Counted from the first letter of the stretch, positions 8,836 to 60,377 are shown. The stretch: 64,000 nucleotides of DNA from an uncultured Fimbriimonadaceae bacterium (GCA_964531735.1 CAZHGD010000010.1:9673-73672); one strand, 5' to 3'. The notes: generated by a model not told the origin, from the sequence alone. Numbers and translations are program-made.

Positions 8836-9064
8836 CGCGCTGAGACCTCCGATTGTCTAGTACAATGGACTCAGCGCTGAATCACCGGCGTCGGAGCCTG
8901 CCCGGAGCTCGCTGGACGGAGCAGATGGGCATAGGTGAGAAAGACGGCGAGCAGAGCGACGAGGATGGCAACAAAGGCGGTCGTGGGGCTGATCTCTTTA
9001 GGTGGCGTCTTGGACACTGTCCGGTCCGTTTCTCGCTAACCAGCGCTAGCGGTGAGTGTAGCGA

Positions 9065-12458: not shown

Positions 12459-12620
12459 CCGGCCGGTGCTCGAGCTCCGACCTCAACCCCTGCGGGTTGG
12501 CAACGGTTCGCAGCAGGAGTATAGTGTGCCGGCAACAGCGCGTCAACGGATGGGCAACATCCTGCTGAGCCACGCTCCGGTCAGCGCCCGTCGACCCGAC
12601 GCGCCGGAGGAATACACGCC

Positions 12621-14450
12621 ATGACGACACTCTCACGGGACGACTATCGCCGCAGGGTGCATGGTTGCTGGGTAGGGAAGAACGTCGGCGGAACGCTCGG
12701 TGCCCCGCACGAGGGCAACATGTCCGTTCTGGACCTGACATACTACGATCCGGTGCCCACGGGCGCTATACCCAATGATGATCTGGAGCTCCAGTTGGTC
12801 TGGTTGGCGGCGCTGCGCGAGCACGGGCCGGCCACCGACGAGCGCACGCTGACCGACGCCTGGCGGCGCTGGCTGCGCTACCCCTGGGACGAGTACGGCA
12901 TGGCGTTGTGGAACGTCAACCGCGGCCTCGTGGCGCCGGTGTCGGGCCAGTTTGCCAACCACTTCGGTGACTGCATGGGGGCGCCGATCCGCTCGGAGAT
13001 CTGGGCCTGCATCGCGCCGGGCTGCCCCGACCTGGCGGCCGAGTACGCCTACTGCGACGGCTGCGTCGACCATAGCCGCGAAGGCATCTGGGGTGAGGTG
13101 TTCTTCGCCTCGCTGCAGAGCGCGGCGTTTGTGGAACCCGACCGCGACCGCCTGCTGGACATCGGCCTGGCGATGATCCCTGTCGATTCGCGGGTGGCCC
13201 AGGCGGTCAGGCTGACCCGCCGGCTCCACGCCGACGGGCTGGACTGGCGCGCCGCGCGCGAGGGCATCCTGGCCGAGTGCGGCCACCACAACTTCACCGA
13301 CGCGCCGCAGAACATCGCCTTCACGGTGCTCGGCTGGCTGTGGGGCGAGAACGCTTCCGACGCCATGTGCAAGGCGGTCAACTGCGGGTATGACACCGAC
13401 TGCACCGGCGCGACGCTCGGCGCCATCCTGGGCCTGCTGCACGGACCCGAAGTGTTCGAGCAGCGCTGGATTGACCCGGTCGGTGACGACGTCGTGTGCG
13501 GCTGGGGCGTGGTCGACTGCGAGACGCCGAAGACCATCGCGGAGCTGACCGAGTGGACGCTCGAGGTCGCCGACGCCGTGATCGCCTATCACCACGCGCC
13601 GATCAAGTTCGGCGCCAAGGCGGCGGCCGGGCAGCTCAAGGCCGAGCGGACGCCGTCGCTGTCGGCCCGCCTGGCGCACCACGACTGGACGCTGCGGTTC
13701 CCCGCGCGCATCGGCGAGGAAGCCGTGACGGCGTGGGTGGATCTGGCCGGCCCGCCGGCGCTGGCGCCCGACGAGGAGCGCGTCATCCGCGTGACGCTGG
13801 ACCCGCCGATCGGCAAGCTGTCGGTCGACCGCCTGGGGCCGGGCTGGACCGCGCGCGACCTGGGCGAGGGGCAGTTCGCCATCAAGGCGCCGGCCCGCAT
13901 CCAGGAAGCGGCCTGGCACACGATGTCGATGGTCCTGCGGCCCGGCCGCAGCGCCGTCTGCGATATCGGCTGGGTGCCGGCCAGCGGCTGGCAGGTCAGC
14001 GGGCCGCACGTGGTCGATTCGGCGGCCGACGAGCTCTACCGCCTGGTCGAAGCTGACGACTGGCGCGCGGTCTGGACGCCCGACCACCGGCTGAAGCTGG
14101 ATGACGGGGCGGACCACGACCGCGTCTATCGCATCCGCACGCACCTCAACGTGCCCGACGCGCGTGAGGCGCGCCTGGTGGCGGCGACCGGCGAACTCCA
14201 GCGCGTGATGCTCGACGGCGCAGAGGCCTTCATCAAGACCGAGCCGACCGCGTTCATTCCGGCCGCGCACCGGTCGGGTCCGGGCACGACCACGGTGGCG
14301 GCGCGCTGGTCGGCCGGCGACCACCTACTCGACATACTGCTCGCGGCGCGGGCCGGGCAGCCGGCCGAGGTCCATGTCTACCTGACGCGCTCGCGCGAAG
14401 ATGAGGCGCGGATGGTGCCCTGGGAGGATGTCGTCCTCCGCATGCCCTGA
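12621..14450 (+). CDS. ADP-ribosylglycohydrolase family protein with a ~270-aa C-terminal extension
   Basis: GCWVGKNVGGTLGAPHEG and NCGYDTDCTGATLGAILG are ARH/DraG family signatures. GGAGGAA SD 8 nt upstream of the ATG. Confidence 0.8.
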   Translation: MTTLSRDDYRRRVHGCWVGKNVGGTLGAPHEGNMSVLDLTYYDPVPTGAIPNDDLELQLVWLAALREHGPATDERTLTDAWRRWLRYPWDEYGMALWNVNRGLVAPVSGQFANHFGDCMGAPIRSEIWACIAPGCPDLAAEYAYCDGCVDHSREGIWGEVFFASLQSAAFVEPDRDRLLDIGLAMIPVDSRVAQAVRLTRRLHADGLDWRAAREGILAECGHHNFTDAPQNIAFTVLGWLWGENASDAMCKAVNCGYDTDCTGATLGAILGLLHGPEVFEQRWIDPVGDDVVCGWGVVDCETPKTIAELTEWTLEVADAVIAYHHAPIKFGAKAAAGQLKAERTPSLSARLAHHDWTLRFPARIGEEAVTAWVDLAGPPALAPDEERVIRVTLDPPIGKLSVDRLGPGWTARDLGEGQFAIKAPARIQEAAWHTMSMVLRPGRSAVCDIGWVPASGWQVSGPHVVDSAADELYRLVEADDWRAVWTPDHRLKLDDGADHDRVYRIRTHLNVPDAREARLVAATGELQRVMLDGAEAFIKTEPTAFIPAAHRSGPGTTTVAARWSAGDHLLDILLAARAGQPAEVHVYLTRSREDEARMVPWEDVVLRMP

Positions 14451-45945: not shown

Positions 45946-45966
45946 ACCGGTCCAGCCCGTCTGTTG

Positions 45967-46007
45967 CCGCCCCCACGACTGCCGTCGCGGGGGCGGTGTG
46001 CTTTGGG
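45967..46007 (+). terminator. intrinsic terminator after ahcY
   Basis: 13-bp GC stem with one A-C mismatch (CCGCCCCCACGAC tgcc GTCGCGGGGGCGG) followed by TGTGCTTTGGG, 22 nt after the stop. Confidence 0.5.
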
Positions 46008-46107
46008 ACGGCAGGATTCCGCTGCGGATGGCGAACCATCCATCCGCCCGTTGGCGGAACTTGGCGCGGGGAGCGGATTCACAATAGAGACAGGTGATAC
46101 GGCGGCT

Positions 46108-47991
46108 ATGCACAAGGGCTCTTCGCCAGTGGTGTTGGTGATTGAGGACGACAAGGCGCTCGGTCAGGCGCTGAGCAACCATCTGCGGTTCCGCGGCGAT
46201 GCGGTGGAGTCCGTTGGCACGGGTGGCGAAGGCCTGTCGCGCCTGCAGGCGGGCGGCGTGGACGTGGTCCTGTGCGACATCGGCCTGCCGGACATGTCCG
46301 GGCACGACGTTGTCAGACAGGCTCTGTCGGGTGCCGAGGCGAGCGCCGAGGGGCGGCCCGAGTTCGTCATGATGACGGCCAATCCGACGCTCGACAACGC
46401 CATCGCGTCACTCGAGCTCGGGGCCTTCCAGTTCGTCACCAAGCCACTGTCGATGCCGTTCCTGGAGGTCGTGATCGACCGCGCCCTGAGCTTCCGGGCG
46501 GCCCGGCGCGAATCGCGGCGGCTCCAGGAGGAGCAGGAAGCGCTGGTGCTCAGTGCGCTGGCCGATGTGACCGGCAACCTCGGTTTGGTGGGGGCGTTGG
46601 AATCGGTGCTGCGAGCGCTGCATGTGCTGCTGCGGCCGGCCCATGCGGCCATCTGGCTGGCCGACCCCGACGAAGGCAGTCTGCGCTGCGTCACCAGCCG
46701 CGACGACGCATCCGAGGCCCTGTCCAACGAGCACGAGATCATCGCGCGCGAGTGCTTCGGCGCCGAATGCCTGGTCTGCCGCGAGATCGACCGGATGCAC
46801 TACGGCGCCGCGCCGATCCAGGTGGACGACGCGACCGAAGGCGCCATCAGCATCGATTTCGACGACGAATGCCCCATTGACGACGGCAGTCGTGCGGAGC
46901 TGCTGACCACGCTGGCCCGGTTCGCCGGTAACGCCGTGCGCAAAGAGCGGCTCTACGCCGGCCTCGAACAGTCATCGATGCAGATCTCCTCGCTTTTCGA
47001 GGTGGGCCTGGCGATGAGTTCCGAGGTGTCGCTGCAGCGCCTGTTCGAGGTCATTGTGGACAGCGCGGCCCGGATCAGCGGCGCGGATCGTTGCAGCCTG
47101 ATGCTGATCGACCCCGGTCAGGAGACACTGCGGATGCGCGCGGCGGTGGGCATCCCGCCCGAAGTGGTGGCCAAGGCCGAAGCCCGGGTCGGCGAGGGCA
47201 TCGCCGGTACCGTGGCCAAGACCGGTGAGCCGCTGTTCATCTCGAACATCGAGCAGTCCGGCCGCTTCCAGCGCAAGAACGCCTCGGAGCGCTACAACAA
47301 CACGTCGCTGGTCTGCGTGCCGATCCGCATGCACAACCGCGTGGTCGGCGTGCTCAACGTCAACAACAAGCGCGATGGTACCAGCTTCAACGAGAACGAC
47401 CTCAACCTGCTCACGCTGCTGGCCAGCCAGGCCGCGGTGGCGCTCGACAACGCGCACCGCTACCAGGATCTGAGTGAGAAGGCCATCACCGACGGACTGA
47501 CCGGCGTCTACCTGCGCCGGTACTTCGACGAGTGCCTGGAACGCGCCGACCGCAACGCGCGCAGCACCGGGCGCGCGTTCTCGCTGCTGATGGTCGACAT
47601 CGACCACTTCAAGCGGGTCAACGACAACTACGGCCACCAGACTGGTGACGAGGCCCTGAAGGTCGTGGCCAACATCCTCAAGGGCCTCGTGCGCGACGAC
47701 GACCTGGTCTGCCGCTACGGCGGCGAGGAGTTCGTGATCATCCTGGCGCGCGCCGGCCGGGACGCGGCCCAGCGCGTGGCCGAACGCGTCCGCGCCACGG
47801 TCGAGGGCCACGAAGTGCGCACCACCGAGCACGCGCTGCGGATCACCGTCAGTATCGGCGTCGCCTCTTTCCGCAACGAGTTGCGCGCTCCCGAGGACCT
47901 GGTCAAGGCGGCCGACGAGGCGCTGTACGCGGCCAAGGAGACCGGGCGGAACCGGGTGGTGGTGGCGCCTGAGCCGTCCGAGGTCAGTTGA
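46108..47991 (+). CDS. response regulator REC - GAF - GGDEF diguanylate cyclase
   Basis: ORF trimmed to ATG 46108. REC domain (VLVIEDDKALG...VLCDIGLPDMSG); GAF-like segments; GGDEF active site (RYGGEEFVIIL) with I-site-compatible context. Confidence 0.8.
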   Translation: MHKGSSPVVLVIEDDKALGQALSNHLRFRGDAVESVGTGGEGLSRLQAGGVDVVLCDIGLPDMSGHDVVRQALSGAEASAEGRPEFVMMTANPTLDNAIASLELGAFQFVTKPLSMPFLEVVIDRALSFRAARRESRRLQEEQEALVLSALADVTGNLGLVGALESVLRALHVLLRPAHAAIWLADPDEGSLRCVTSRDDASEALSNEHEIIARECFGAECLVCREIDRMHYGAAPIQVDDATEGAISIDFDDECPIDDGSRAELLTTLARFAGNAVRKERLYAGLEQSSMQISSLFEVGLAMSSEVSLQRLFEVIVDSAARISGADRCSLMLIDPGQETLRMRAAVGIPPEVVAKAEARVGEGIAGTVAKTGEPLFISNIEQSGRFQRKNASERYNNTSLVCVPIRMHNRVVGVLNVNNKRDGTSFNENDLNLLTLLASQAAVALDNAHRYQDLSEKAITDGLTGVYLRRYFDECLERADRNARSTGRAFSLLMVDIDHFKRVNDNYGHQTGDEALKVVANILKGLVRDDDLVCRYGGEEFVIILARAGRDAAQRVAERVRATVEGHEVRTTEHALRITVSIGVASFRNELRAPEDLVKAADEALYAAKETGRNRVVVAPEPSEVS

Positions 47992-48017
47992 CAACCGGGT
48001 CTGCTTTGTCCTAGGAT
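47988..48017 (+). promoter_or_regulatory. sigma70-like promoter for the sigma-54 activator gene, overlapping the upstream stop codon
   Basis: TTGACA (47988-47993, overlapping stop TGA 47989-47991), 18 nt, TAGGAT (48012-48017). Confidence 0.3.
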
Positions 48018-48054
48018 CGCCAGCGTCTGGACCGCTACCAACGGGGCCCGCCGC

Positions 48055-49497
48055 ATGTCCGAGACCACCAGTGTCCGGTTGGACGGAGTTCGTGTCCTGA
48101 TCGTGGACGACGAACCCAACATGCTGCGGGTCACCCGCCGCATCCTGCACCGTCGCGGCGCCAGCGTGGAGAGCGCCACCAACGGCCTCGAGGCGCTGGA
48201 CGTGCTCACCCAGTACCCGGCGGACATCATCCTGACCGACCTGATGATGCCGGTCATGGATGGTCTCGAGTTGCTCAAGCAGGTGCGGGCTCGCGACCTG
48301 GATGCCGTGGTGCTGGTACTGACCGGCCATGGCACCATGGAGACCGCCATCGAGGCGATGCGGTTGGGCGCGCGTGACTACCTGCTCAAACCCTACGATC
48401 CGGAAGCGTTTATCCTGGTCTGCCACCGCGAGATCGAAGCCGAGCGCGTGCGGCGCGAGAACCTGCGCCTGAAGGCGGCGGTGTCCAGCCTGTCGCAGCG
48501 GCTGGAGCGCTTGGAGAGCTTCGGCGAGATGGTGGGCGACAGCCGGCCGATGCAGGCGGTCTACCAGCAGATCCAGCGCCTGTGCCGGTTCCACGACATG
48601 ACCGTGCTGATCACCGGGGAGACCGGCACCGGCAAGGAGCTGGTCGCCCGGGCGCTGCACCGCGGCAGCCCGCGCGCGGCACACCCGTTCGTGGCCCTCA
48701 ACTGCGCGGCCATCCCCGAGGACCTGCAGGAGTCGCAGCTCTTCGGCCACAAGAAGGGCTCGTTCACCGGCGCCACCGAGGACTACGTGGGGGCGTTTGA
48801 GGCGGCGCACCAGGGCACGCTGCTGCTGGACGAAGTGGGCGAGATGCGGCCCGAGTTGCAGGCCAAGCTGCTCCGCGCGCTGGAAGAGAAGGCCATCACG
48901 CCGCTGGGCAAGCACCAGCCGGTCACCGTCGACGTGCGCGTGGTGGCGGCGACCAACCGCGACCTGGCGCAGGCGGTGACGGCCGGCGAGTTCCGAGCCG
49001 ACCTGTACAACCGGCTGGAAGGGGCGGTCATCGAGCTGCCGCCGCTCCGCGTGCGGCCCGACGACATTGCGGCGCTGGCCCGGCACTTCCTCGACCGGAT
49101 CGCCACCGACTACGGCATGGAACCGCGCACCCTCAGTGACGATGCCGTCGCGGTGCTCCGGGCCCACCGCTGGCCGGGCAATGTCCGCGAGTTGCAGAAC
49201 GTCATCCGCCGGGCGTTCGTCTTCTCCGATGCCGACATCGTCACGGCCGAAGACATCCGGATCGTCACGCCGACGGCGACGGCGCCAGTGGTGTCGGCGC
49301 CGGCGGCCATGGCCGCGCCCGATCCGGCCGCGCTGCTGGCCAGTGACGGCGATCTGGGCGTCTACGACGAGCGCGAGCGCGACCTGATCGCCCAGGCGCT
49401 CCGCCAGGCCGGCGGCAACAAGTCCCGTGCCGCCGAGTTGCTGGGCATCGACCGCAAGCGCCTCTACCGGCGCCTGGCCAAGTACGGGCTGGGCTGA
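48055..49497 (+). CDS. sigma-54-dependent NtrC-family response regulator (REC - AAA+ - Fis HTH)
   Basis: Walker A GETGTGKE; [15 protein letters not shown] (GAFTGA-type motif); C-terminal HTH ([20 protein letters not shown]). Confidence 0.85.
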
Positions 49498-49507
49498 GCC
49501 GCCACGG

Positions 49508-51310
49508 CTACGGCGCGCCTGCGGGCGCGTCGCCAAGTCGGTAGAGCGCACAGGTGTCGAAATCCTTGGCCAAGGCGTGGTGGCCCAGGTACACGCAGTG
49601 CAGCCGGTGCGCGCCCGTCGCGGCGAGCGCGGCGGCGAACGGTTCGCTGGCGAAGGCGCAGCCCGGCGTGCCCACCTGCTCGATTCGGGCGGCCCGTGTG
49701 ACGTGGCGCCCGAAGTAGTTGGTCCGGCCCAGCACGGGATCCCACTGGGCGTAGACCGGGCCGGCGTGCAGCCCGATGCGCAGCCCGGCCGGCGTCGGCA
49801 GGCCATGGCCCGACCAGTCGGTGCCGCGCAGGCGAGCCAGCAGCGCCGTGGCGCACTCGGCGCACTCGACCACGTCATCGAAGACGAGGAACAGGCCGTC
49901 GCCCCAAGTGTTCGCGAACCGCGGCGGCACGGACCGCTCGGACAGCGCCGCCGCCACTTGGTCGAGGAACGCGCTGACGAAAGCGGGCGTGCCTTCCTCA
50001 CACAGGCGACCGAAGCCGTGGACGTCGGCGAACAGCATGGCTTTGAGTTCGCGCCCGGCCACCGCGGGTGCCGGCGCCAGATGCGGGCTGACCGGCGGCG
50101 GGCCGGCGGGCGAGCCGCGCAGCGCGGCCAGGTCGAGTCGCTCGATCGGGCGGCCGAGCGATTGCCAATGGCGGGCGAACGCGGCGGTGCCCGTGTCGTT
50201 CGCGGCCGAGGCTGGGTCGAGCAGCACCAGTGCCGTCGGCTCGACGTGCCAGGCTTGCGCGCCGCAGATGGCCAGTCCCTGCGTCACGCGGTCACAGAAG
50301 CCGAACAGGTGGCGATCGCCCAGGTAGCGTTCGGTAGTGGCCTGGTGTACCTGCGTGGCGCGGTTGAGCACCTGCTCGAAGCGCTGTCGCCAGCCCGACC
50401 GTGCCGGCGCGCCATAGTCGACGCTGGTGCGGACGAAGTCCTCACGGTCGAACGGCAGGACGATGTGCAGCTCGCCACCGCGCGCGAGCACGGCTTCGGC
50501 GAACAGCAGATCCGCGCCGCAGGCGCCGGAGCAGAAGCCGAGGCTGACCTGCCGACGGTCGAGGGCGGCGGCCAGAGCCGCGGCGGCGGCCTCAATGACT
50601 GTGGCGTCGTCGGGGAAGCGGGGCTGGCTCGCCCCCGGCTGGTCGATCAGGTGCCCACTGAAGGCCACCACGCCGCCCGGGTTGACGACGGCCAGCAGGT
50701 CGCTCACGTCGAGGGCGCGCGCCAGCAGCAGGAGCTGGCGCCGCATGCTGGCCACGTCACCACGCCGCCAGCCGGCTTGCGCGACCGCGGCGGCGTAGGC
50801 GGCGCCGGCCTCGTCGCGGCGTCCCAGCAGGAGCAGCGCCTCGGCGCGAGTGGCCGTGGCCCAGTGGTCGGCGGCGGGTCCGGCCAACTGGCACAGCAGC
50901 GCGGCCGCCAGCGTCCGGGCCTCTTCGTGGCGGCCGCCAAGCCAGGCCAGGCTGGCGGCATTGATGCCGGGATAGGGCTCGCCCACCGTCTGGTACGCCT
51001 CGCGGTACCGCAGGGCGGCCAGGGCCAACGCCTCCGGATCGCCGTTGCGTTCGAAATCGTCTTTGGCCAGGCGAGCGCGCAGACAAGCGGCCTCGGTCCA
51101 TAGCGCCGTGGGCAGCGACTCGGCCAGCAGCCGATCGAGCAGGACGCTGGCGCCTGGGCCGTTGCCGCCTCGCGCCAGCGCCAGTGCGGCCAGGTAGCGC
51201 AACGCCGGGTCGTCGCGGCGCGTGCGGTCGGCCGAGGCCGCCAGGTCATAGGCCTGACCGGGACAGCCGGCCGCGATCTGGGCACGGACCTGTTCGAGGA
51301 TCTCAGTCAC
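49508..51310 (-). CDS. TPR-repeat - caspase-like (CHAT/orthocaspase-like) - class III nucleotidyl cyclase fusion protein
   Basis: N-terminal about 200 aa helical and TPR-like. Middle has a His-Cys dyad in caspase-like context (VVAFSGHLID, then a helix, then LGFCSGACGADLL; compare metacaspase HYSGHG and DSCHSG). C-terminal cyclase motifs FADVHGFG, TWGDGLFLVF, RIGLHAGPV, VTRAARIE. GTG start 51308-51310 overlaps the upstream gene's TGA. Confidence 0.7.
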   Translation of the reverse strand: MTEILEQVRAQIAAGCPGQAYDLAASADRTRRDDPALRYLAALALARGGNGPGASVLLDRLLAESLPTALWTEAACLRARLAKDDFERNGDPEALALAALRYREAYQTVGEPYPGINAASLAWLGGRHEEARTLAAALLCQLAGPAADHWATATRAEALLLLGRRDEAGAAYAAAVAQAGWRRGDVASMRRQLLLLARALDVSDLLAVVNPGGVVAFSGHLIDQPGASQPRFPDDATVIEAAAAALAAALDRRQVSLGFCSGACGADLLFAEAVLARGGELHIVLPFDREDFVRTSVDYGAPARSGWRQRFEQVLNRATQVHQATTERYLGDRHLFGFCDRVTQGLAICGAQAWHVEPTALVLLDPASAANDTGTAAFARHWQSLGRPIERLDLAALRGSPAGPPPVSPHLAPAPAVAGRELKAMLFADVHGFGRLCEEGTPAFVSAFLDQVAAALSERSVPPRFANTWGDGLFLVFDDVVECAECATALLARLRGTDWSGHGLPTPAGLRIGLHAGPVYAQWDPVLGRTNYFGRHVTRAARIEQVGTPGCAFASEPFAAALAATGAHRLHCVYLGHHALAKDFDTCALYRLGDAPAGAP

Positions 51311-54300
51311 TTCGGGTCTCGGGCTGGGCGGTTGTGGGCGCGGCCCGCTGGGCCGCTGCGCGGGCCTGCATCAGTTGGTCGTACTCCGGCCTGGTCATCG
51401 CGCTGAACGGTGAGATGGTCCGGGTGTCGCGGTCAGCGAGGAACCAGCGCCCCCAGCGCACCCAAGGGTCGGTGGGGGGGCTATTGGCTAGTCGCGCGCG
51501 GACGGTGTCCAGCAGGCCGGCGGCGCCGTGCTTGCCGTAGAGGAGGTCACGGGCGTCACGCTCGTCGCGGGCCCAGCGTCGGGCTGCCGGTGACAGCCGT
51601 GCCCAGACCGTCAGATCCGGTGACCTGCTGTAGGAATCGTCGCGCACCAGGGCCGTGGCCAAGAGGACCAGCCACGACGGTGGCGGACCGAGCTGCAGGC
51701 CGACATCGGTGGCGGAGTCCGAAGCCGGCCAGGCCACCGCTCGTCCGTCGCGGCCGAAGGCGATGCCGGGCACCAACAACGGCGCGCAGACCTCGGTCGC
51801 CGTGGCGAGACTCCAGTACCGGGCCGCACCGGTCCTGGTGTGGGCCGCGAGCAGGCGCCCGTCGGGCGAGAAGCCCACCTGGTCCACCGGCAGGCCCAGT
51901 TGCAGCACCGGCCCAACCCGCTGGCCGTCGTGGGCGCGCACCAGCCGGACCGTCCCATCGCCAAAGCCCAGCCCCAGCAACGTGCTGTCCGGACTGAACG
52001 CGGCACACGGGACGTCGGCGTGGCCGGCCGAGGGTGTGGACCACTGCCGCCGCCAGCCGTCGGTGGCGTAGACCTGAACCTGCTCGGCGGCCGTCACCGC
52101 CAGCCACCGACCGTCCGGGCTCCTGGTGGCGCAGTCGGCATAGCAGCCGCGCCGCCGCAACTCGGGATCGGTCTCGTCGGCCCCGGTTGCGAACAAAACG
52201 TCGCCGGCCCGTTGCGGGCCGCCGGCGAGGGCGCGCCCGGTGGCCACGTCCCAGAGCCGGACCGCTTGGTTCGCGTCCACACCGGCGGTGAGCAGGACCT
52301 TGTCGTCGCTGCTCAGTTCAGCGTAGTTGACCCGCGTCTGGAGGTCGATGGGCGGTGATACGGCGGCACCGGTCTGCGTGTCCCAGACCTGGCATCGGCC
52401 GCCGCTGGCGACGGTCACCAGCCGGCGGCCGTCGCGGCTGAGGGTGATCCACTTCGGACAGCGGTTGTGGGCGACGGTGACGGGCGAGCCAGCGGCAGTG
52501 GACACGTCGTAGACCAGCACATGCGGCTCGGTCCAGCGCGTCACCGCGCCGTGCGAGCCGTCGGCGCTGACGGTGAGCTGCTTGCTCAGATCGCGCCTGA
52601 CCTCCAGCGGGTAGGCCACCGAGGCGGCGTTGTGCGCGTCCCACACTTGCAGGCCGCCGTCGGCGACGGTTACCAGGCGGTGGTACCGCGATTGGTAACG
52701 GGCGGCAGCGACCTGGCCACGGTGGGCCACCGGCAGGACCGGGGCCAGCCGACCGGTGCCGACGTCCCAGAACCGTGCCGTGCGGTCGCTGCCGCCGGTG
52801 AACAGGTACCGGTCGCCGCCGGCGAACTCCAGGCTCTGGATCTGCGTGGCCGCCGAACTGGCGAACTGCGCGACGAGCGCCTGCTTGGCGGGGTCCCAGA
52901 CTCGGATGTCGTCGCTCGCTCTGGCCAGCCACCCGCGCTGGGGGCTGAAGGCCAGCGCCTGTATGGGCGTAGCCTGCGGGCCTGGCCGGTAGGTCAGTTG
53001 GTGCGCGCCGGTGTCCGGCGACCAGAGACGCACTTCACCGCCCCAGGTGCCGGTTGCCAGGCGAGCCGAGTCGTGGCTGAAGGCCAGGCAGATGACGACG
53101 GCGAGATGGTCCTGATCGTCGTGCGGCAGACGGGCCGCCAGGCTGCCGGAGCCGGCCATCCAGATGGTGGCGTGCCGCTCGCCACCGGTGGCGATGAAGC
53201 GCCCGTCCGGGCTGGTGGCGATGGCGCGCACGCCTTGGTCGTGCGCCTGCCAGTCGCGCAGCACGGCCCCGTCGGCCACGCGCCAGATGCGCACCAGGCC
53301 ACGGTCGGTGCCCGCCAGATAGCGCTTGCCGTCCGGGCTGAAGCAGCCGCACCAGAGCTGGTGCCCCGGCGGCGCCACCAGGGGCGCCCCGCTGGCTTGC
53401 CAGGTCTGGGCGTCCCACACCTGCACGCCGCGGCCCAACACCCCGGCCAGGCGAGTCCCGTCGGGTGCGAACTGCGCATCGCGGCAGGCGCCCAGCGACT
53501 TCGGCCAGGCCAACTGGCCCAACGGCAGGGCCACGCCGTTCTGGGTCAGCGCGGCCGCCAATCGCCGCCCGGCAGTCGGCTCCTCGGGCCGGAGCCGGAT
53601 CGCCTCGACCAGATGCCGGATGGCCTCGGGCTCACCGTTGCGGTCGAGTAGATCCTGGGCTTGCTGACAGTGCAGCCGGTAAGTGCCGCGCTGGGCCTCC
53701 TGCGTCGCCAGGACGGCCCAACAGGCCACGGCGGCGAACAGGCAGGCGACCACGAGCATCAGCGTCGCCAGGCCGATCAGGCGCCGCACTCGGCGCTCGT
53801 GATCTCGGCGCGCGAGGTCGTCCAGACGAACGCCCAGCAAGCCGGCCAGCAGCTTCAGGAACCCGTACGCCCGGCCGTCCTTGCCCGGCCGGAGGTCGGC
53901 CGCGATGGGCTCGGCCCGTTCCTCGGTCAGCTCGCCATCGGGGCCGACGGCGTACCGGAGGGCCGGCACGAAGCACTCGCTGGCCTCGGCTCCCGGATGG
54001 TCGGACGCGTTGGGTTCGCCGTCTACCACCAGGCACAGGATACGGTCCGTACCGCCCATGGCCTTGAACTGCCGCACCTCTTCGTTGACGAAGCGCGACT
54101 GCGCCGAGTGGGGAGAGCAGACCACGATCAGGTGCCGTGACTGGGCCAACGCGGTCTCGATCTGGTGGCCCAGGTCAGGCGAGACCGGCAGTTCGTCGCG
54201 ATCCTTGAAGATCGGGTACAGCCGCCGAGGCAGCCCTTCGCCCTTGAGCCGGCGCGGCACGCGGTACAACTCCAGTGCCCGGTGGAGCCAGTTGGCCCAG

Positions 54301-54383
54301 CGTTGGTCACGGTGGCTGTAGCTCACGAAGGCCCAGTAGTGGTACGGGGCTGGCGGTGCCAGGCTGGTCGGCACGGAGTCCAT
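51303..54383 (-). CDS. TIR domain - transmembrane helix - WD40 beta-propeller protein
   Basis: N-terminal bacterial TIR (WAFVSYSHRD...IFKDRDELPVSPDLGHQIETALAQSRHLIVVCSPHSAQSRFVNEEV) with a candidate catalytic Glu. Positively charged segment then TM helix (RRVRRLIGLATLMLVVACLFAAVACWAVLA). At least 10 WD40-like repeats. ATG 54381-54383. Confidence 0.8.
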   Translation of the reverse strand: MDSVPTSLAPPAPYHYWAFVSYSHRDQRWANWLHRALELYRVPRRLKGEGLPRRLYPIFKDRDELPVSPDLGHQIETALAQSRHLIVVCSPHSAQSRFVNEEVRQFKAMGGTDRILCLVVDGEPNASDHPGAEASECFVPALRYAVGPDGELTEERAEPIAADLRPGKDGRAYGFLKLLAGLLGVRLDDLARRDHERRVRRLIGLATLMLVVACLFAAVACWAVLATQEAQRGTYRLHCQQAQDLLDRNGEPEAIRHLVEAIRLRPEEPTAGRRLAAALTQNGVALPLGQLAWPKSLGACRDAQFAPDGTRLAGVLGRGVQVWDAQTWQASGAPLVAPPGHQLWCGCFSPDGKRYLAGTDRGLVRIWRVADGAVLRDWQAHDQGVRAIATSPDGRFIATGGERHATIWMAGSGSLAARLPHDDQDHLAVVICLAFSHDSARLATGTWGGEVRLWSPDTGAHQLTYRPGPQATPIQALAFSPQRGWLARASDDIRVWDPAKQALVAQFASSAATQIQSLEFAGGDRYLFTGGSDRTARFWDVGTGRLAPVLPVAHRGQVAAARYQSRYHRLVTVADGGLQVWDAHNAASVAYPLEVRRDLSKQLTVSADGSHGAVTRWTEPHVLVYDVSTAAGSPVTVAHNRCPKWITLSRDGRRLVTVASGGRCQVWDTQTGAAVSPPIDLQTRVNYAELSSDDKVLLTAGVDANQAVRLWDVATGRALAGGPQRAGDVLFATGADETDPELRRRGCYADCATRSPDGRWLAVTAAEQVQVYATDGWRRQWSTPSAGHADVPCAAFSPDSTLLGLGFGDGTVRLVRAHDGQRVGPVLQLGLPVDQVGFSPDGRLLAAHTRTGAARYWSLATATEVCAPLLVPGIAFGRDGRAVAWPASDSATDVGLQLGPPPSWLVLLATALVRDDSYSRSPDLTVWARLSPAARRWARDERDARDLLYGKHGAAGLLDTVRARLANSPPTDPWVRWGRWFLADRDTRTISPFSAMTRPEYDQLMQARAAAQRAAPTTAQPETRSD

Positions 54384-54553
54384 CTACCTACTCGTTGCTG
54401 GCCTGAACGGCGACGCCGGCACTGGCGCCGCTGGGCGATGGTACCACTAGATACTGACGGTGGTTCCTCAGGCTGCCGGTCGCTCCTTCACCAGCGCCGT
54501 CGACGGGCGGGTGGGCAACCGACGGTCCAGGGCCGGGCGCGCCGCGTGGCGGC

Positions 54554-56383
54554 TCAGCCGCCGGCCCGTCCGCGCTCGGCCTCCAGCTTGCGCAGGAGGT
54601 GGCCGGGCACCTCATCGGTGAAGCGGGTGCCGTCGGGGAACTGACCGTTGCTCAGGTTCAGTCCGCATTCGGGGCAGTGCGGCTCGCCTGGTCCGTCGAT
54701 GGACGACCCGCACGCCGCGCACGAGATAGCCCAGCCGCCGACGATCAGGTCGAGCTTGACCCGGCCGGTGACATAGGCCCGCGCGTTGAAGCCACAGCGC
54801 GGGCAGCGGGGCCCGTCGTTCTCGCGGGGTGCATTGCAGAACGGACATCGCGTCAGCACGCCGAGGGCCTTGTCGTAGAGGCTGACCACCAGCGGCCCGC
54901 CCTCGCCGAGCACGTGTGCGGAGCGCGTCTGGCCCACCGGCGGCAGGTCCGAGTAGACCATGCCGCAGGTCGGGCACCGCCCTGTGTCGGGCCCGACGGT
55001 GGCGCCGCACGTGCCGCAGGCCAGCATCGTGCGCCCCTCGATCGGCACCGCGAGCACCTGGCCGTCGGTGTACCGGAAGATGTTCTGCGGGCAGTGCGAG
55101 CAGCGTAGCGCATGCTCGATCGGTGCGCCGCAGAACGGGCAGGCGGTCAGCGGCTGGGGGTTCGGTCCCTGCGCGCCCACCGGCAGCAACTGCACCAGTC
55201 GCCGGTCGTGCAGTGTGTCGACCATCTCGCGAGCGGTGGTGAAGCGCCGGTTCGGGCTCTTCTGCAGGCACTTGTACACGACGCCGCGCAGGTGCGGAGC
55301 GACCTCGTCAGGCAGCGGCTCGGGGCAGCTCTGGCAGACCTGCGTGAGCACCGTGCGCACGTCGGCGCCGGGGAACGGCCGGCGGCCGCCGATCAGCTCA
55401 TAGAGGACGGCGCCGAGCGACCATACGTCCGACCGCATGTCGGCGTCGAGGCCCTGGGTCTGTTCGGGCGGCATGTAGGCCGGCGTCCCGACCTGCCGGC
55501 CGACGCGGATGATGGTGGAGAACTCGGGCGGATCCAACTCCTCGAGGTGCAGGGCGCCCAGCTTCTGCGCCAACCCGAAGTCGGCGAGGCAGACGTGCCG
55601 ATCCTCGCCGACGAGCATGACGTTGGCCGGCTTGAGGTCGCGGTGGATGACCCCGGCATCATGCACGCCGGCGACCGCGCTGCACAACTGGAACATGATG
55701 CGCTCGATGCGCTCGACGCTCGGTCGGCCGGTGACCAGGTGCTCGCGGAGGTTCAGCCCGTGCATCAGCTCCATGGCGATCCACGGGACGCCGTCGTGCT
55801 CGCCGGCCCCGTAGCAGCGGACCACGTTCGGGTGCTGCACGGCCTGCATCGACTCCACCTCGCGCTGGAACAGCGCGCGGCGGTGCTCCTCCTCGCGCGG
55901 CTCCCAGTCGAGACGCAGCCGCAAGGTCTTCAGCGCCACGGTGAGCCCGTCCCGGTCGCGGGCCTCGAAGACCCGTCCGACCGATCCGCTGCCCAACTCG
56001 GCCATCAGGCGGTACGGGCCCACCTGGTCGCCGGCGTGGAAGCGCCGTTCGTTGCCGCTGGTCAGGACGCGCAGAATGAGCTGATACGGCCCGATGCCGA
56101 CCTGGTCGCCGACGCGCAGCAACTGCGCCTGCTTGAGCAACTGCCCATTGACCAAGGTCGGCGAGGTGATGCCGCCGGGCGCGATGATCACCTGGTCGGT
56201 GCGCACCCGCAGCCCGCAGTGGTTCGGCGCCACTTCGTTGTGGGGCAACCGGATGCCACGCTGGGGGCTTCGCCCGATCACGAAGTCGCCCGGACGGAGG
56301 GGGATCGTGGCGCCTTGCTGCGGCCCGGCCACCACTTCCAGGATGAACTGCGCGGCGCTATCACTGGGATTGGGCGCGGGCAT
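54554..56383 (-). CDS. FHA domain - Ser/Thr protein kinase - multiple C-terminal zinc ribbons
   Basis: ORF 54554..56629 trimmed to ATG 56381-56383 (GGTGGAG SD). FHA domain (FVIGRSPQRGIRL...SPTLVNGQ). Kinase motifs GSGSVGRVF, VALK, HRDLKPANVML, DFGLA, APE-like PPE. Five CxxC...CxxCG zinc ribbons. Confidence 0.85.
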   Translation of the reverse strand: MPAPNPSDSAAQFILEVVAGPQQGATIPLRPGDFVIGRSPQRGIRLPHNEVAPNHCGLRVRTDQVIIAPGGITSPTLVNGQLLKQAQLLRVGDQVGIGPYQLILRVLTSGNERRFHAGDQVGPYRLMAELGSGSVGRVFEARDRDGLTVALKTLRLRLDWEPREEEHRRALFQREVESMQAVQHPNVVRCYGAGEHDGVPWIAMELMHGLNLREHLVTGRPSVERIERIMFQLCSAVAGVHDAGVIHRDLKPANVMLVGEDRHVCLADFGLAQKLGALHLEELDPPEFSTIIRVGRQVGTPAYMPPEQTQGLDADMRSDVWSLGAVLYELIGGRRPFPGADVRTVLTQVCQSCPEPLPDEVAPHLRGVVYKCLQKSPNRRFTTAREMVDTLHDRRLVQLLPVGAQGPNPQPLTACPFCGAPIEHALRCSHCPQNIFRYTDGQVLAVPIEGRTMLACGTCGATVGPDTGRCPTCGMVYSDLPPVGQTRSAHVLGEGGPLVVSLYDKALGVLTRCPFCNAPRENDGPRCPRCGFNARAYVTGRVKLDLIVGGWAISCAACGSSIDGPGEPHCPECGLNLSNGQFPDGTRFTDEVPGHLLRKLEAERGRAGG

Positions 56384-56503
56384 ACCAACTCCACCCCTGC
56401 CGGTACGACTGCCATGTCTGGCGATACGATGCCATGCGCGCGAACCCGTGTCAAGCCACTTGGCCGTGGTGGGCAGGGACCGGTTGTCGGTTATACTGCG
56501 TTG

Positions 56504-57637
56504 GTGCAAGCGACCAATGCCCCCCAACCGCAGAGCGCCGGCCGACGTGTGCCGTTGCTGGACGCACTCCGCAGTCTGGCCGTCCTGGGCGTCGTCGTCA
56601 TTCACGTGGTGGCCGGCCCACTGCTGCACCCCTCACGCCACTCCGCCGCGGAGTTGCGCGGCTTGGTGTTGCTGGACGCGCTGGCACGGGTGAGCGTGCC
56701 GGCGCTACTGGTCATCAGCGGCGTGGTGCTCATGCGCGGATGGTGCGAGCGGCCGCAGCCGGTGATCGTCTTCTGGCGGCGTCGCTTCGCCCGGGTGCTG
56801 CCTGCGTACGCGGTCTGGTCGGCCGTCTACACGGCCGGCAGCAGTGCGGCTGGCGCCGGCGCCTACGCGCGCCACCTGCTCTGCGGCGACGCCAGTTTCC
56901 ACACCTGGTATGTGCCGCTCATCCTGCACCTGTACCTGCTGTTCCCCGCGCTGGCCGCAGCGGTGCGGCGGTGCCATCGGGCGCGGTGGACCACCGCCGC
57001 GCTGCTCGCGGCGGCCGTGGCCTGGGCCGTCGTGCGGCCGGTGGTGCCATGGGCGCTCCCAGCGCCGTCGGGTCCGGGCTGGCTGGCTGGTTACTTCGCC
57101 GCGGGTCCGCTGGCGGTCTGGCAGTGGCTGCCCTACTTCCTGCTCGGGCTGGCGCTGGGCGGGCCCGCCGCGACGCAGCCGCAGTTGCCGCGGCGGTGGT
57201 GGCCGGTGCTGCTCAGCGTCGGCGCCGTGCTGGTCGCTGGGCTGGTGGCAGCGCGCGTGGCCGGCCTGCGGCTGAGTGCCGACGGCGACCATGCGCGCCA
57301 GCAGGCGCTGTTCGGTTGGCAGACCATCGGCACGCCGGTCTTCGCGGCGGTGACCGCCGGCTGGCTCGTGCTGTGGTTGCAGCGCCCGGCCGCGGCGCGG
57401 CTCGTCGAGCGGCTGGCCCGGTTGGCGCCGGCCACCTTCGGCGTCTACCTGGCCCACGTGTTCGTGATGCAGCGGTTGCAGCACTGGTTCGGCTACGCCT
57501 TGCTGACCTACTTCGCGGGCACGGTACCGGTGGCCGTGCTGCTGGTGGCTGCGCTCACCTGGCTGTTGATCAACGGGCTGGGGCGCGTGCCGCACCTGGC
57601 CCGCTGGGTTGGTCTGGAAGCCCGGCCGGTCACCTGA
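56504..57637 (+). CDS. membrane acyltransferase family 3 (O-acyltransferase) protein
   Basis: C-terminal part of ORF 55112..57637. LDALRSLAVLGVVVIHV start-of-domain signature and about 10 TM helices. Start uncertain (GTG 56504, TTG 56501 or ATG 56414); no clear SD. The Arg-rich ORF 56434..57654 is the wrong frame. Confidence 0.65.
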   Translation: MQATNAPQPQSAGRRVPLLDALRSLAVLGVVVIHVVAGPLLHPSRHSAAELRGLVLLDALARVSVPALLVISGVVLMRGWCERPQPVIVFWRRRFARVLPAYAVWSAVYTAGSSAAGAGAYARHLLCGDASFHTWYVPLILHLYLLFPALAAAVRRCHRARWTTAALLAAAVAWAVVRPVVPWALPAPSGPGWLAGYFAAGPLAVWQWLPYFLLGLALGGPAATQPQLPRRWWPVLLSVGAVLVAGLVAARVAGLRLSADGDHARQQALFGWQTIGTPVFAAVTAGWLVLWLQRPAAARLVERLARLAPATFGVYLAHVFVMQRLQHWFGYALLTYFAGTVPVAVLLVAALTWLLINGLGRVPHLARWVGLEARPVT

Positions 57638-60377
57638 GCGCGCGCACGAGGTAGCGCACGGCCACCTGTTGGCCACGTTGCAGGCGAGGCGGCAGCACCA
57701 CCTCGACCCGGCCGATCTGGTAGGCGCGCCAGTTGCCGGCCTTGAGGCCGTTCGGCACCAGGTTGAGTTGCGCCGGCTCGTCGAACATCACCTCGATGCC
57801 GCGGCCCTGCTGGTCGGTGATGGTGAACCGATCGGCCCGGGCCGGCCCACTGCTGGTGGCGCCGACGCGGGCGTCGGCCCCGCGCGCTTTCCATGGTCCG
57901 CGGACATACGGCAGGTTCTCCACCAGGCTGGTCAGCGCGACGTCCGCGGTGGCGGTCAGCTCCAGGTCCACCTCGAGCGTCTGGTCGCCGAAGTGGTACT
58001 GCCGGCGGTAGTCCACCGGCACCTGCTCCAGGTGGCCCTCGATCACCAACCGCGAGCCTGCGGCGTCGAGCCGGAACCGATGCCGGAAGTAGTCCTCCCA
58101 GTAGCGGCGTCCATCTGTGGCGGTGGCCACCAGGCCGTGGTGGCAGGTCGGCGACCAGGCCGTGGCCATCAGGCTATGGCCGTAGTCCGGCGTCCAGAAG
58201 CCGGTCAGCCCGCCACCGAGGAACGGCGTGATCTTGCGGGCATTGGGCAGGTCGCCGCCGTCGGTCTCGCGGTCGCCGGCGACCGGTTGGCGCAGGTCCT
58301 CGCGCCCGCGGATGTAGTGGTCGCCCGCCGCCGGCTTGCCGACGTAGACGACGGTGTAGTAGCCGGCGCGCTTGACCGCGATCATCTCGTCGGCGAAGTT
58401 GCGCAGGAACGGCTCCGGCTCGGCCGCCGGCCAAGTGCCGCGCTGCGGTGCGGCAAAGTGCAGGTAGCGCGGCGTGGTGATATCGGCATAGAGCGGCAGT
58501 TCGGGCTTCGCCAGGAAGCGCTCAATCTGCGCGGTGGCCTCGGCCTTGGTGCGGGGTGGCTCGGCCCAGACGCCCACCTCGGGCAGCACTTCATCGAGGA
58601 TGCCTTTGGCGCCGCTCCACTGCTCCTGCGCAAAACTGTCGCCGACGCGGTGGTTGAAATTGAACCCGCCCAGCGGCCGGCCGTCGGGCTCGGGCGCGAC
58701 GGTGTGGTTGAAGAAGCGATAGCCGCGCCGCAGGCCGTCGAGGACGGCCGCATCGCCGCTCATGCGGTAGTAGACTGCTTCGTGCCAGTGGGTCATGCCG
58801 ATGTAGCTGGCGCACGGGCCGGTGGCTTCCTGGTGGAAGCCGGCCGGGTGTTGCCCACGCACCCAGCGGCGGGCCCAGAGGTGAGCCAGGTCGCGGTAGA
58901 GCGGATCGCCCGCACCGTCGGCGTAGGCCTGGAAGGCGACCAGGTAGTGCGACGACTGATTGCGCGCCGAGACGAGGTAGTCGCCGTACGCGCGGTCGAC
59001 CAGATGCCGCAGGCCTTCGCTCCAGAGCCGGCGCACGTCGTCGGGCAGGTGCGGCGCCGCCAGCCCGAACCCGGTGAAGGTCTTCTGCCCGAAGGCAAAG
59101 GCGTGCATGCCGGGGTAGGGGTCGAGGTCGTTGAGGCCGGGGAACACCTCGGCTTCCTGAACCACCATCAGGTCGCGCAGCCCGGCCGCCGCGGCCCGCA
59201 CCAGCAACTCGCGCCGGCCCTGGTACGGGTTGGTCGGATCCTTGAGCAAGGCGGCGCGCGCCAAGTGCTCGGCGGCATTACCACAGTGGCTGGAGGCGCC
59301 CGCGTACAGGCCGTCCAGCGGCCGGAAGCGGTCCCAGCGCCGGCCCGGGCCAGCCTGACCCGCGTAGGGTTGCCAGCCGTCCATGGCGCCGCCCCACGGG
59401 CTGGCCGGGTCGACGTTCTGCCGGCTCAGCCAGTGCTCGACGGTGGCCAGGTACGACTCCCGGAGCACCGCGTTGCGGAGCGGATCGGCCAGCCAGGCGG
59501 CGCGTCGCGTCGCCAGCCGCTCGGTCAGCGCGCGGGCGTCGCCGACCTGGGCCGGCGCAAGCAGCCGCGGCAGCAGTTCGGCCAGCCGGCGTTGGAACTG
59601 CCAGCAGACCACCGTGCCGTCGGGCAGTTGCTCCACCGAGGCATGGATCGCGCGGGCCGCCGCCGCCGACGAGCAGAGGATGAGCGGGAAGCCGGCGGCG
59701 CGGAAGCGGACGTCTCCAGACGCCGGCGGGCGCACGGTGAACACCGTACCGGCGTCGGCGGCAGTCAGCGCCACCGTGTGCCGGCGCGGGCTGTCCGTGC
59801 GTGCCCGCGGGCGGTCGGTGGCGTCGCGCACTTCGAGCGGCGCGCCCTGGAGCGTCAGCTCGTCGGCGTGCGGCGGCACGAACACGTGCCAGGCGCCACC
59901 AGGCGGCCGTGCCGGCTGGTAGTCGCCGTTCTGCTGGCTGAACCCGTAAGGCAGCTCACGACTGACCTCGATCTCGGCCGTGCTGTTCCGCGCGCCGGCG
60001 AGCAGGCGGAGCTGGTAGACGCCGGAGCCGGTCAGTTCGACGGTGTGGTCGAAGATGACCTCGCCGGGCTGCGGTGGTGAGGACAGGTCGCGCAGCAGCA
60101 GCTCGTCGCGCCCCGGTCCGGTGGGCCGGTCGGCCGCCGGCAGCCACTCCACCCAGCGCCATAGGGCCAGTTGCTCGGCCGGGTCGAGCACGCGCACCAG
60201 CAAGCGCTCGGGCTCGCGCGCGGTGGTCTGACGCACGACGATGCGCGCGGCGGCCGGCCGGCCGTCGGCGACCAGGTACACGGCCAGGCTCGGCTCGAGC
60301 GGCAGCGGGCCCACCCGCATCGCCGACCAGGCCGGGGCGAGCAAGAGCAGTGACCAGCAGACTGACCAGCGGACCAT
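57630..60377 (-). CDS. large secreted hypothetical protein (possible polysaccharide-active enzyme)
   Basis: Signal peptide MVRWSVCWSLLLLAPAWSA. 915 aa with strong GC3 bias; no catalytic motif recognised. Confidence 0.55.
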   Translation of the reverse strand: MVRWSVCWSLLLLAPAWSAMRVGPLPLEPSLAVYLVADGRPAAARIVVRQTTAREPERLLVRVLDPAEQLALWRWVEWLPAADRPTGPGRDELLLRDLSSPPQPGEVIFDHTVELTGSGVYQLRLLAGARNSTAEIEVSRELPYGFSQQNGDYQPARPPGGAWHVFVPPHADELTLQGAPLEVRDATDRPRARTDSPRRHTVALTAADAGTVFTVRPPASGDVRFRAAGFPLILCSSAAAARAIHASVEQLPDGTVVCWQFQRRLAELLPRLLAPAQVGDARALTERLATRRAAWLADPLRNAVLRESYLATVEHWLSRQNVDPASPWGGAMDGWQPYAGQAGPGRRWDRFRPLDGLYAGASSHCGNAAEHLARAALLKDPTNPYQGRRELLVRAAAAGLRDLMVVQEAEVFPGLNDLDPYPGMHAFAFGQKTFTGFGLAAPHLPDDVRRLWSEGLRHLVDRAYGDYLVSARNQSSHYLVAFQAYADGAGDPLYRDLAHLWARRWVRGQHPAGFHQEATGPCASYIGMTHWHEAVYYRMSGDAAVLDGLRRGYRFFNHTVAPEPDGRPLGGFNFNHRVGDSFAQEQWSGAKGILDEVLPEVGVWAEPPRTKAEATAQIERFLAKPELPLYADITTPRYLHFAAPQRGTWPAAEPEPFLRNFADEMIAVKRAGYYTVVYVGKPAAGDHYIRGREDLRQPVAGDRETDGGDLPNARKITPFLGGGLTGFWTPDYGHSLMATAWSPTCHHGLVATATDGRRYWEDYFRHRFRLDAAGSRLVIEGHLEQVPVDYRRQYHFGDQTLEVDLELTATADVALTSLVENLPYVRGPWKARGADARVGATSSGPARADRFTITDQQGRGIEVMFDEPAQLNLVPNGLKAGNWRAYQIGRVEVVLPPRLQRGQQVAVRYLVRALR

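Follow-up and report, generated by a model that had tools for sequence, protein, structure and literature searches.

We describe a gene in a 64,000-nucleotide stretch of DNA from an uncultured Fimbriimonadaceae bacterium (GCA_964531735.1, CAZHGD010000010.1:9673-73672; the whole of this stretch is called the window below) whose product joins an N-terminal TIR domain, a single predicted transmembrane (TM) helix and a long WD40 repeat region. Together with the TPR-S/SLOG/cyclase gene that overlaps its end, the gene is most fittingly seen as a new form of Thoeris-like signalling, one that faces outward, and we give roughly even chances to the more specific proposal that it encodes the sensing part of a Thoeris-like nucleotide relay made by two genes and built across the inner membrane. 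The protein is no one-off and belongs to a very large, uncharacterised family; a preliminary description, which treated it as a single curiosity, had the architecture itself right but overlooked both the large family and the SLOG partner gene. The gene and its parts, in window coordinates, are as follows:

51303..54383, minus strand: whole gene, consisting of TIR domain, TM helix, linker, 14 WD40 repeats and tail; 1026 residues from an ATG start (open reading frame list)
53826..54338, minus strand: TIR domain, residues 16-186 (Pfam, family alignment, AlphaFold2 model, Foldseek)
54078..54080, minus strand: codon of Glu102, the predicted catalytic residue, within SRFVNEEV (translation; family, L6/L7 and ThsB alignments)
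53781..53825, minus strand: basic juxtamembrane stretch, residues 187-201 (LDDLARRDHERRVRR), with the conserved motif RExxRRxRR
53703..53780, minus strand: single predicted TM helix, residues 202-227 (LIGLATLMLVVACLFAAVACWAVLAT) (Kyte-Doolittle and Hessa scales, homologs)
53490..53702, minus strand: helical, TPR-like linker, residues 228-298 (sequence)
51690..53489, minus strand: WD40 region, residues 299-898, about 14 blades, predicted periplasmic (Pfam, repeat marks)
51306..51689, minus strand: C-terminal tail, residues 899-1026, with the conserved motif WVRWGRWFLADRDTRTISPFS at 51408-51467 (phmmer)

The G+C content of third codon positions is 0.88 in the gene's frame, the surrounding region having 70% G+C, and an identical protein (P0121) is annotated in two public records, a contig of 6.2 kb and an NCBI entry of 83.8 kb; a promoter and terminator scan of 49300..54700 found nothing either way. 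In the translation, the motifs named in the preliminary description are present, FVSYSHRD at residues 19-26, SRFVNEEV at 96-103 and, ahead of the helix as claimed, RRDHERRVRRL at 192-202, abutting the hydrophobic stretch at 202-227. The span given there, 53900..54383, was too short: it encodes residues 1-161 only, that is, most of the TIR domain, and the helix and the WD40 region lie beyond it. The WD40 region was put at about 750 residues there; the part after the helix has 799 residues, about 600 of which are WD40 blades. A Pfam scan finds WD40 and many other beta-propeller families over residues 299-870 or so, and 14 SPDG-like marks, spaced by about 42 residues, can be counted in the protein sequence, a number and spacing that fit two seven-bladed propellers. 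The C-terminal tail matched no Pfam family.

The N-terminal domain is a member of the TIR superfamily, with Pfam scores above threshold and a TIR fold. TIR_2 (PF13676) is matched at residues 19-123 with 49.1 bits against a cutoff of 28 and ThsB_TIR with 32.5 bits against 21.2; the AlphaFold2 model of residues 1-240, the TIR domain and TM helix together, has a predicted local distance difference test (pLDDT) score of 92.8, and the best matches of the TIR model in the PDB, found with Foldseek, are all TIR domains (SPARTA TIR-APAZ, TLR1, AbTir, RPP1 and SARM1). A phmmer search of the PDB sequences with the TIR domain alone gave no match, but the family profile succeeded. With residues 1-291 as the query, 476 relatives were found, 45-63% identical across the TIR domain and the helix, and 52 of these were aligned. 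The core of the domain, residues 16-123, is followed by a family-specific insertion at residues 124-186 (53826..54014), in which C137, E158, P159, D163 and R165 are invariant across the alignment (motif ECF...EPIAADxRxGKDG); the model shows this insertion, with confidence, as additional strands that pack against the core.

Among the 52 aligned relatives, E102 is invariant and E101 nearly so, the family motif being SxWVNEE(I/V). The profile built from the alignment sets E102 on the glutamate of SKWCLMEL in the flax proteins L6 and L7 and of SEWCKYEL in TLR2; the alignment to ThsB of Bacillus cereus MSX-D12 was also run, and it lays SRFVNEEV on RRWVRYEI, with E102 on E85, at a weak profile score and in the same register. 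The E102-aligned position is where the catalytic glutamate of enzymatic TIR domains sits (E135 in L6, E100 in RUN1, E642 in SARM1); the number of E85 follows from a count along the ThsB sequence and agrees with the residue's usual numbering. The earlier assignment of the glutamate in SRFVNEEV to the catalytic position thus agrees with its invariance and with the L6, L7 and ThsB alignments. Since the alpha-C glutamate of the W-x-x-x-E motif is kept, the domain is predicted to be enzymatic, of the NADase/cyclase type.

The unit formed by the TIR domain, the basic stretch and the TM helix is conserved far beyond the window: a scan in which each species was represented by one genome found it at no fewer than 584 loci, of which 80, from GTDB, were fetched for study. 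Its hosts, among the loci listed, are Gammaproteobacteria (Rhodanobacter, Dyella, Lysobacter, Steroidobacteraceae and Aliiglaciecola), Acidobacteriota, Verrucomicrobiota, Planctomycetota, Lentisphaerae, Elusimicrobia and Eremiobacterota. What follows the helix varies, with TPR repeats in 46 of the 72 complete genes and WD40 repeats in 15. The family's proteins carry the database labels 'TIR domain-containing protein' or 'WD40 repeat protein', and our literature search found no paper describing a membrane-spanning TIR-TM-repeat family.

The second half of the proposed relay is encoded by the gene that follows on the same strand:

49508..51310, minus strand: partner gene, 600 residues from a GTG start, with an 8-nucleotide overlap with the stop of the TIR gene (junction AGTGACTGA)
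50948-51250, minus strand: TPR-S domain, partner residues 21-121 (Pfam)
50126-50698, minus strand: YpsA-like SLOG domain, partner residues about 205-395 (AlphaFold2 and Foldseek)
49649-50041, minus strand: class III cyclase-like domain, partner residues 424-554 (Pfam)

Pfam matches in the partner protein are to TPR-S, MAP3K_TRAF_bd and Guanylate_cyc, the last with 32.8 bits against a cutoff of 21.9, and its 200-residue middle domain has no Pfam match. An AlphaFold2 model of partner residues 195-400 (pLDDT 94.4) found YpsA of Bacillus subtilis (2nx2; E 1e-7, TM-score 0.59/0.67) as its best match in Foldseek, followed by DprA, ShosA and LOG, and these matches place the middle domain, as a YpsA-like member, in the SLOG superfamily. 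In the cyclase domain, the two aspartates that bind metal (FADVHGF, WGDG) and the arginine are retained. Counting against a working cyclase, the usual lysine before the GD is replaced by asparagine (NTWGDG) and the asparagine of VNxAxR by threonine (HVTRAARIE), and its activity and product are for this reason uncertain; NTWGDG is conserved across the partner's cyclase family. Beyond the partner gene, and convergent on its end, 45946..49497 on the plus strand encodes a response regulator-GAF-GGDEF diguanylate cyclase and a sigma-54 activator response regulator.

When the open reading frames around the 80 loci (51 of them with flanks of 3 kb or more on either side) were clustered, two neighbour families predominated. 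One is the (RyR)-TPR-S-SLOG-cyclase protein, found at 9 loci plus the window; the other occurs at 23 gammaproteobacterial loci and consists of an N-terminal domain with two SLATT 2-TM effector modules behind it (matched by SLATT in Pfam). The N-terminal domain of these SLATT proteins, which are encoded beside TIR-TM-TPR genes, is homologous to the SLOG domain of the window (hhalign probability 97.3%, E 2.4e-11). In searches with hidden Markov models of the SLOG domain, a SLOG reading frame was present at 41 of the 80 loci and at 32 of the 51 well-flanked ones (63%), lying within about 1 kb of the TIR gene at 32 of the 41 and downstream on the same strand at 30. The whole 64-kb window holds only one SLOG reading frame, the one adjoining the TIR gene. 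Seven loci encoding homologs of the partner cyclase were also inspected: the two closest relatives, P0242 and P0243, are head-to-head with TIR-WD40 genes of 1188-1190 residues, and P0321 adjoins other TIR genes.

Two of these counts tell against the pairing in the WD40 branch: three of the seven cyclase loci have no TIR neighbour, and a SLOG partner is found in a minority of the WD40-type relatives (2 of about 15 genome loci, to which L087, L090 and the window are added). Across the whole family, then, TIR and SLOG genes are strongly linked, and in the WD40 subfamily more weakly. A SLOG domain that stays constant while the effector is swapped between a cyclase and a SLATT pore, and the repeats on the TIR protein vary, is the signature of a relay in which a sensor TIR makes a signal for a SLOG effector.

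Two other kinds of neighbour were seen around the family. At 10 gammaproteobacterial loci (L026:12202-12636 and nine more), a small open reading frame of 129-206 residues with no Pfam match lies beside or overlaps the 3' end of the TIR-TM-TPR gene, at several of them between that gene and the SLOG-SLATT gene. Seven loci, mostly of Steroidobacteraceae (L042:10605-13829 and six more), have a Ser/Thr/Ala-rich, secreted-looking protein of 990-1160 residues encoded after the TIR gene.

The closest known system is Thoeris, said, in the work of Ofir in 2021, to pair a TIR sensor, ThsB, with a signal-binding effector. As there, a TIR protein with the catalytic-position glutamate is encoded beside a SLOG protein, here also bearing TPR-S, the effector can be swapped (a cyclase for two SLATT modules) and the ThsB_TIR family is matched above its cutoff. 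There are also differences: the TIR protein of the window is membrane-spanning, with about 800 residues predicted to be outside, whereas known ThsB proteins are soluble and cytoplasmic; its class III cyclase-like effector is not among the listed Thoeris effectors, which in our comparison were the SIR2-SLOG protein ThsA of type I, the SLATT protein ThsH of type VII, the TPR and hydrolase protein ThsI of type VIII and the predicted 'SLOG and 4TM' configuration; and the system matches no PADLOC Thoeris model and has no defence-island context.

If the relay is real, the TIR domain would be held in the cytoplasm, against the membrane, by the basic helix, and the linker, the two propellers and the tail would reach into the periplasm. 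A periplasmic or extracellular ligand on the propellers would cluster the receptors, and their clustering would let the TIR domains assemble at the inner face of the membrane. The NADase active sites of TIR domains form only between self-associated copies (SARM1, AbTir, plant TNLs, TIR-STING); once assembled, the TIR domains would, via Glu102, turn NAD+ into an ADP-ribose-derived signal. The YpsA-like SLOG domain, the TPR-S domain or both, in the translationally coupled downstream protein, may then read this product, upon which the cyclase-like domain would start, or stop, making a cyclic nucleotide. What the sequences establish are the identities of the domains, the conservation of the glutamate, the hydrophobic helix with its charge bias, and the linkage to SLOG genes; from these we infer the topology, the enzymatic activity, the direction of the signal, the existence of an outside ligand and the biological role.

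Several elements of this scheme have precedents. The TIR-made signal of type I Thoeris, 3'cADPR, a form of cyclic ADP-ribose (cADPR), is received by a SLOG domain; cADPR is also used by the TIR and SLATT systems of type VII and by type VIII, with its TPR/hydrolase effector, and the 'SLOG and 4TM' configuration has been predicted, though it gave no protection in tests in E. coli (bioRxiv 10.64898/2025.12.03.692087). Among SLOG domains, the YpsA-like clade has been implicated in cADPR sensing (PMC9503650). For the TPR side, the account by Yirmiya et al. credits Burroughs and Aravind with predicting that the TPR of ThsI acts in TIR signalling (bioRxiv 10.64898/2025.12.03.692087), and the Burroughs & Aravind 2020 survey is reported to list YpsA-Tpr combinations. 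The TPR-S or 'Tpr-centred' assemblies such as BcTir/Tpr (bioRxiv 10.1101/2023.05.26.542521) resemble the present pair in that the downstream protein has TPR-S, a domain predicted for TIR signalling; they differ in that here a cyclase-like domain is joined to TPR-S and a YpsA-like SLOG, and the partner of the resulting protein is a TIR-WD40 protein with a transmembrane helix.

A simpler explanation would make the TIR protein a stand-alone suicide or dormancy effector, a membrane-anchored enzyme that depletes NAD+ when its ectodomain is engaged, as in abortive infection, with the downstream protein unrelated or modulatory. A terminal NADase role is common among bacterial TIR proteins, and the scarcity of SLOG genes near the WD40-type relatives fits such a protein; so does a locus with tandem paralogous TIR-TM-WD40 genes (L002:3935-7219 and 8001-11327), which has a gene for a DUF4190 membrane protein between the two and the SLOG partner absent nearby. 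The 8-nucleotide translational coupling in the window and the SLOG partner at nearly two-thirds of the well-flanked loci speak, on the other hand, against an effector acting alone, and the use of one SLOG domain on two types of effector is the pattern expected of the reading of a diffusible signal. On balance, we regard the stand-alone effector as improbable, if a serious contender.

The relay could also run in the opposite direction, the TPR-S/SLOG/cyclase protein being the sensor and its cyclic nucleotide activating the membrane-tethered TIR NADase as the effector. Pairs of a nucleotide cyclase-fold protein and a TIR protein encoded together are known defence systems, Pycsar and Pucsar, and a cyclase gene is adjacent here; the TIR proteins of those systems, PycTIR and PucTIR, carry a cyclic-nucleotide-binding domain, however, and the Pfam scan of our TIR protein found none (bioRxiv 10.64898/2026.08.12.744502 for the known systems). 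The cyclase of the window, moreover, has TPR-S and SLOG domains as inputs, the SLOG proteins of the sister loci bear SLATT pore modules, that is, terminal effectors, and it is the TIR protein that carries the variable repeats, as a sensor would. The likely direction is from the TIR protein to the cyclase, and we hold the reversed order to be quite unlikely.

The outward-facing part of the Thoeris-like reading depends on the membrane topology, which we judged from simple hydrophobicity and charge scales together with the comparison of homologs. On these grounds, the TIR protein is very probably a single-pass, type II membrane protein with its N-terminus in and C-terminus out, the TIR domain lying inside and the WD40 region outside. 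The helix, 26 uncharged residues and the only one of its kind in the protein, has a Kyte-Doolittle peak of 2.72 in a window of 19 residues, with nothing else in the protein reaching 1.6, and on the summed Hessa scale it scores -3.2 kcal/mol, the next best segment +6.8. Within 15 residues of it, there are six lysines and arginines before and two after, and the 30 residues downstream have a net charge of about -1, much as the preliminary description had said in calling that segment neutral or acidic. In the AlphaFold2 model, residues 187-239 form one continuous helix exiting the TIR domain. Inspection of the N-terminal sequence showed nothing like a signal peptide and, as a folded N-terminal domain of 200 residues is not expected to cross the membrane, a TIR domain inside and repeats outside is the sole consistent topology with a single span.

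The relatives tell much the same. Of 120 full-length relatives, 105 show exactly one strong hydrophobic peak, at residues 200-225 or thereabouts; among the other 14, there are 12 with a weaker peak in that position and two, P0222 and P0238, in which none was located there. The N-terminal flank is the richer in lysine and arginine in 88/88 relatives of the TIR module, 118/118 full-length WD40-type relatives and 70/71 genome loci. Cysteine makes up 0.3-0.5% of the residues after the helix (0.47%/0.32%) as compared with 1.2-1.6% on the TIR side; other TIR-TM members have BamB-like PQQ_2/FG-GAP or DUF4384 domains on the C-terminal side of the helix; and the named hosts of the family all belong to diderm phyla.

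The part of the protein behind the helix also occurs with other N-terminal halves. A phmmer search with the tail against 1.84 billion cluster representatives gave 239 matches at E<=1e-3, all to residues of about 953-1004; the motif, WxxWGxWFLxDxxxRxISPFS within the last 50 or so residues, also closes many of the TIR-TM-WD40 homologs. Some tail relatives begin with a Ser/Thr kinase, behind which come a basic segment, a single TM helix, the helical linker known from the TIR protein, WD40 repeats and, at the end, the shared tail (P0379, P0391, P0408, P0420, P0431, P0460, P0481 and P0488), and a similar linker, 'LAyLxRsLxxnPxN', stands behind the TM segment in relatives headed by a kinase, an nSTAND1 domain or a signal peptide. 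In P0370 (1001 residues), only a signal- or lipobox-like peptide, MRAVVVPLTIAGLSVMTFTAC, precedes the linker-WD40-tail module, and the protein looks like an exported, enzyme-less form of the ectodomain.

Some points count against this topology or weaken the case for it. The homologs whose charges were counted share the conserved basic RExxRRxRR motif, so that the counts lack independence; the TIR protein of the window has, unlike most relatives, 11 cysteines (1.4%) after the helix, and a bias towards even numbers of cysteines was looked for across the family and not seen; the sister subfamily has repeats of the TPR_10/TPR_12 type, which cytoplasmic STAND sensors typically carry; and the same TM-WD40-tail module stands behind nSTAND1 NTPases, which is odd if the repeats are outside. 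The cysteines and the nSTAND1 proteins would fit a helix that is no true span, or a monotopic protein, the TIR and WD40 parts both being cytoplasmic in an ordinary, membrane-associated TIR-repeat conflict protein, all the more as WD40 and TPR repeats on TIR or STAND domains are usually cytoplasmic sensors. We give little credence to this version given an uncharged 26-residue helix of such favourable Hessa energy at the same position in nearly all of the several hundred relatives examined, the consistent positive-inside bias, the variant with only a signal peptide and the kinase-headed variants with their receptor-kinase layout. The unique helix, the lack of a signal peptide, the lysine and arginine bias, the kinase-headed and P0370 modules, the side on which the PQQ and DUF4384 domains lie, the depletion of cysteine and the diderm hosts together favour a periplasmic WD40 region; the placement of the TIR domain in the cytoplasm and of the WD40 region outside, which the preliminary description derived from the positive-inside rule, is thus supported, as a prediction, by the in silico tests of charge, helix and homologs.

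Two of the nSTAND1 proteins, P0407 (1277 residues) and P0445 (1309 residues), have one strong hydrophobic helix, at residues 697-715 and 447-465, respectively, between the NTPase and the WD40 repeats and end in the same tail. It is unusual for a predicted membrane span to lie between a STAND ATPase and the repeats that serve as its sensor.

With the predicted topology, the protein resembles known receptors of two kinds. PknD of Mycobacterium tuberculosis is a receptor Ser/Thr kinase with an extracytoplasmic NHL propeller and, like the kinase-TM-WD40-tail relatives, shares with the TIR protein a cytoplasmic N-terminal enzyme, a basic juxtamembrane stretch, one TM helix and a propeller sensor; the output is a TIR domain here and a kinase there, and the periplasmic location of the WD40 repeats in the kinase-headed relatives is likewise predicted. 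The animal Toll-like receptors (TLRs) and interleukin-1 receptors are also single-pass, with a repeat-built ectodomain and a cytoplasmic TIR domain, and activation by ligand-induced association would come naturally to proteins built in this way. They are, however, type I proteins rather than type II, they use leucine-rich repeats (LRRs) or immunoglobulin domains rather than WD40 or TPR, and their TIR domain is a scaffold, whereas that of the window is predicted to be enzymatic. The Pfam scan found no LRR in the TIR protein, and with the order TIR-TM-WD40, the TLR architecture is not reproduced. The phrase 'inverted Toll-like receptor' in the preliminary description stands as an analogy of layout but not as a statement of homology beyond the TIR domain; as homology to TLRs is confined to this domain, the two architectures were put together independently.

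The analogy with TLRs also raises the question of whether the TIR domain is a non-enzymatic scaffold here too, an adaptor that could recruit, for example, the product of the gene 170 nucleotides upstream on the same strand (54554..56629, minus), an FHA-Ser/Thr kinase-multiple zinc-ribbon protein of 691 residues by its first start and 609 in L001; with the catalytic-position glutamate and its surrounding motif invariant, and the kinase clustering with no neighbour of the 80 family loci, we think this very improbable. On the same clustering result, the FHA-kinase was rejected as a partner of the TIR protein; it gives strong generic kinase matches to the PADLOC PD-T4-6/mad6 models.

PADLOC made no system-level call in the window and matched no ThsB or ThsA model, only SAVED_TIR weakly; in a random sample of 140 neighbours, drawn from 67 loci of the family, it found almost no defence matches and no enrichment. 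The surroundings of the gene in the window, with polysaccharide-degrading enzymes, two-component regulators, signalling genes and uvrC, are no defence island. The system may therefore serve in defence, in the sensing of kin or predators, or in signal transduction of an ordinary kind.

According to a survey published in 2024, bacterial TIR systems seem to lack transmembrane and ectodomain features like those of TLRs (PMC11350192). Should the predicted topology be true, the family would form a large pool of outward-reading bacterial TIR proteins, at least 584 loci strong and including cultivable strains of Rhodanobacter, Dyella and Aliiglaciecola. To our knowledge, the characterised bacterial TIR systems (Thoeris, CBASS and Pycsar effectors, SPARTA, Avs) all sense and act in the cytoplasm. 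If the relay is true, the cyclase would be a new read-out of TIR-derived signals. More tentatively, and with the odds rather against it, the family could represent widespread bacterial transmembrane pattern-recognition receptors, in which a WD40 or TPR ectodomain would take up an external cue (contact with a phage or predator, kin, an envelope ligand) and the TIR domain would pass it, through SLOG or TPR-S, to a second tier of cyclic nucleotides; this would be a two-tier nucleotide relay starting outside the cell, a functional counterpart of TLRs independent of the animal one. The cultivable hosts would make it testable what the periplasmic WD40 or TPR repeats bind, how one helix passes the signal on to a TIR enzyme, and whether TIR signalling has roles beyond phage defence.

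Two further genes of the window may be mentioned. About 37 kb from the TIR gene, 12525..14447 on the plus strand encodes a 641-residue protein with an ADP-ribosylglycohydrolase domain, for which a link to ADP-ribose signalling is possible. On the minus strand, 57630..60377 is an open reading frame of 915 residues that matched no Pfam or NCBIfam family and has a signal-peptide-like N-terminus, MVRWSVCWSLLLLAPAWSAM.

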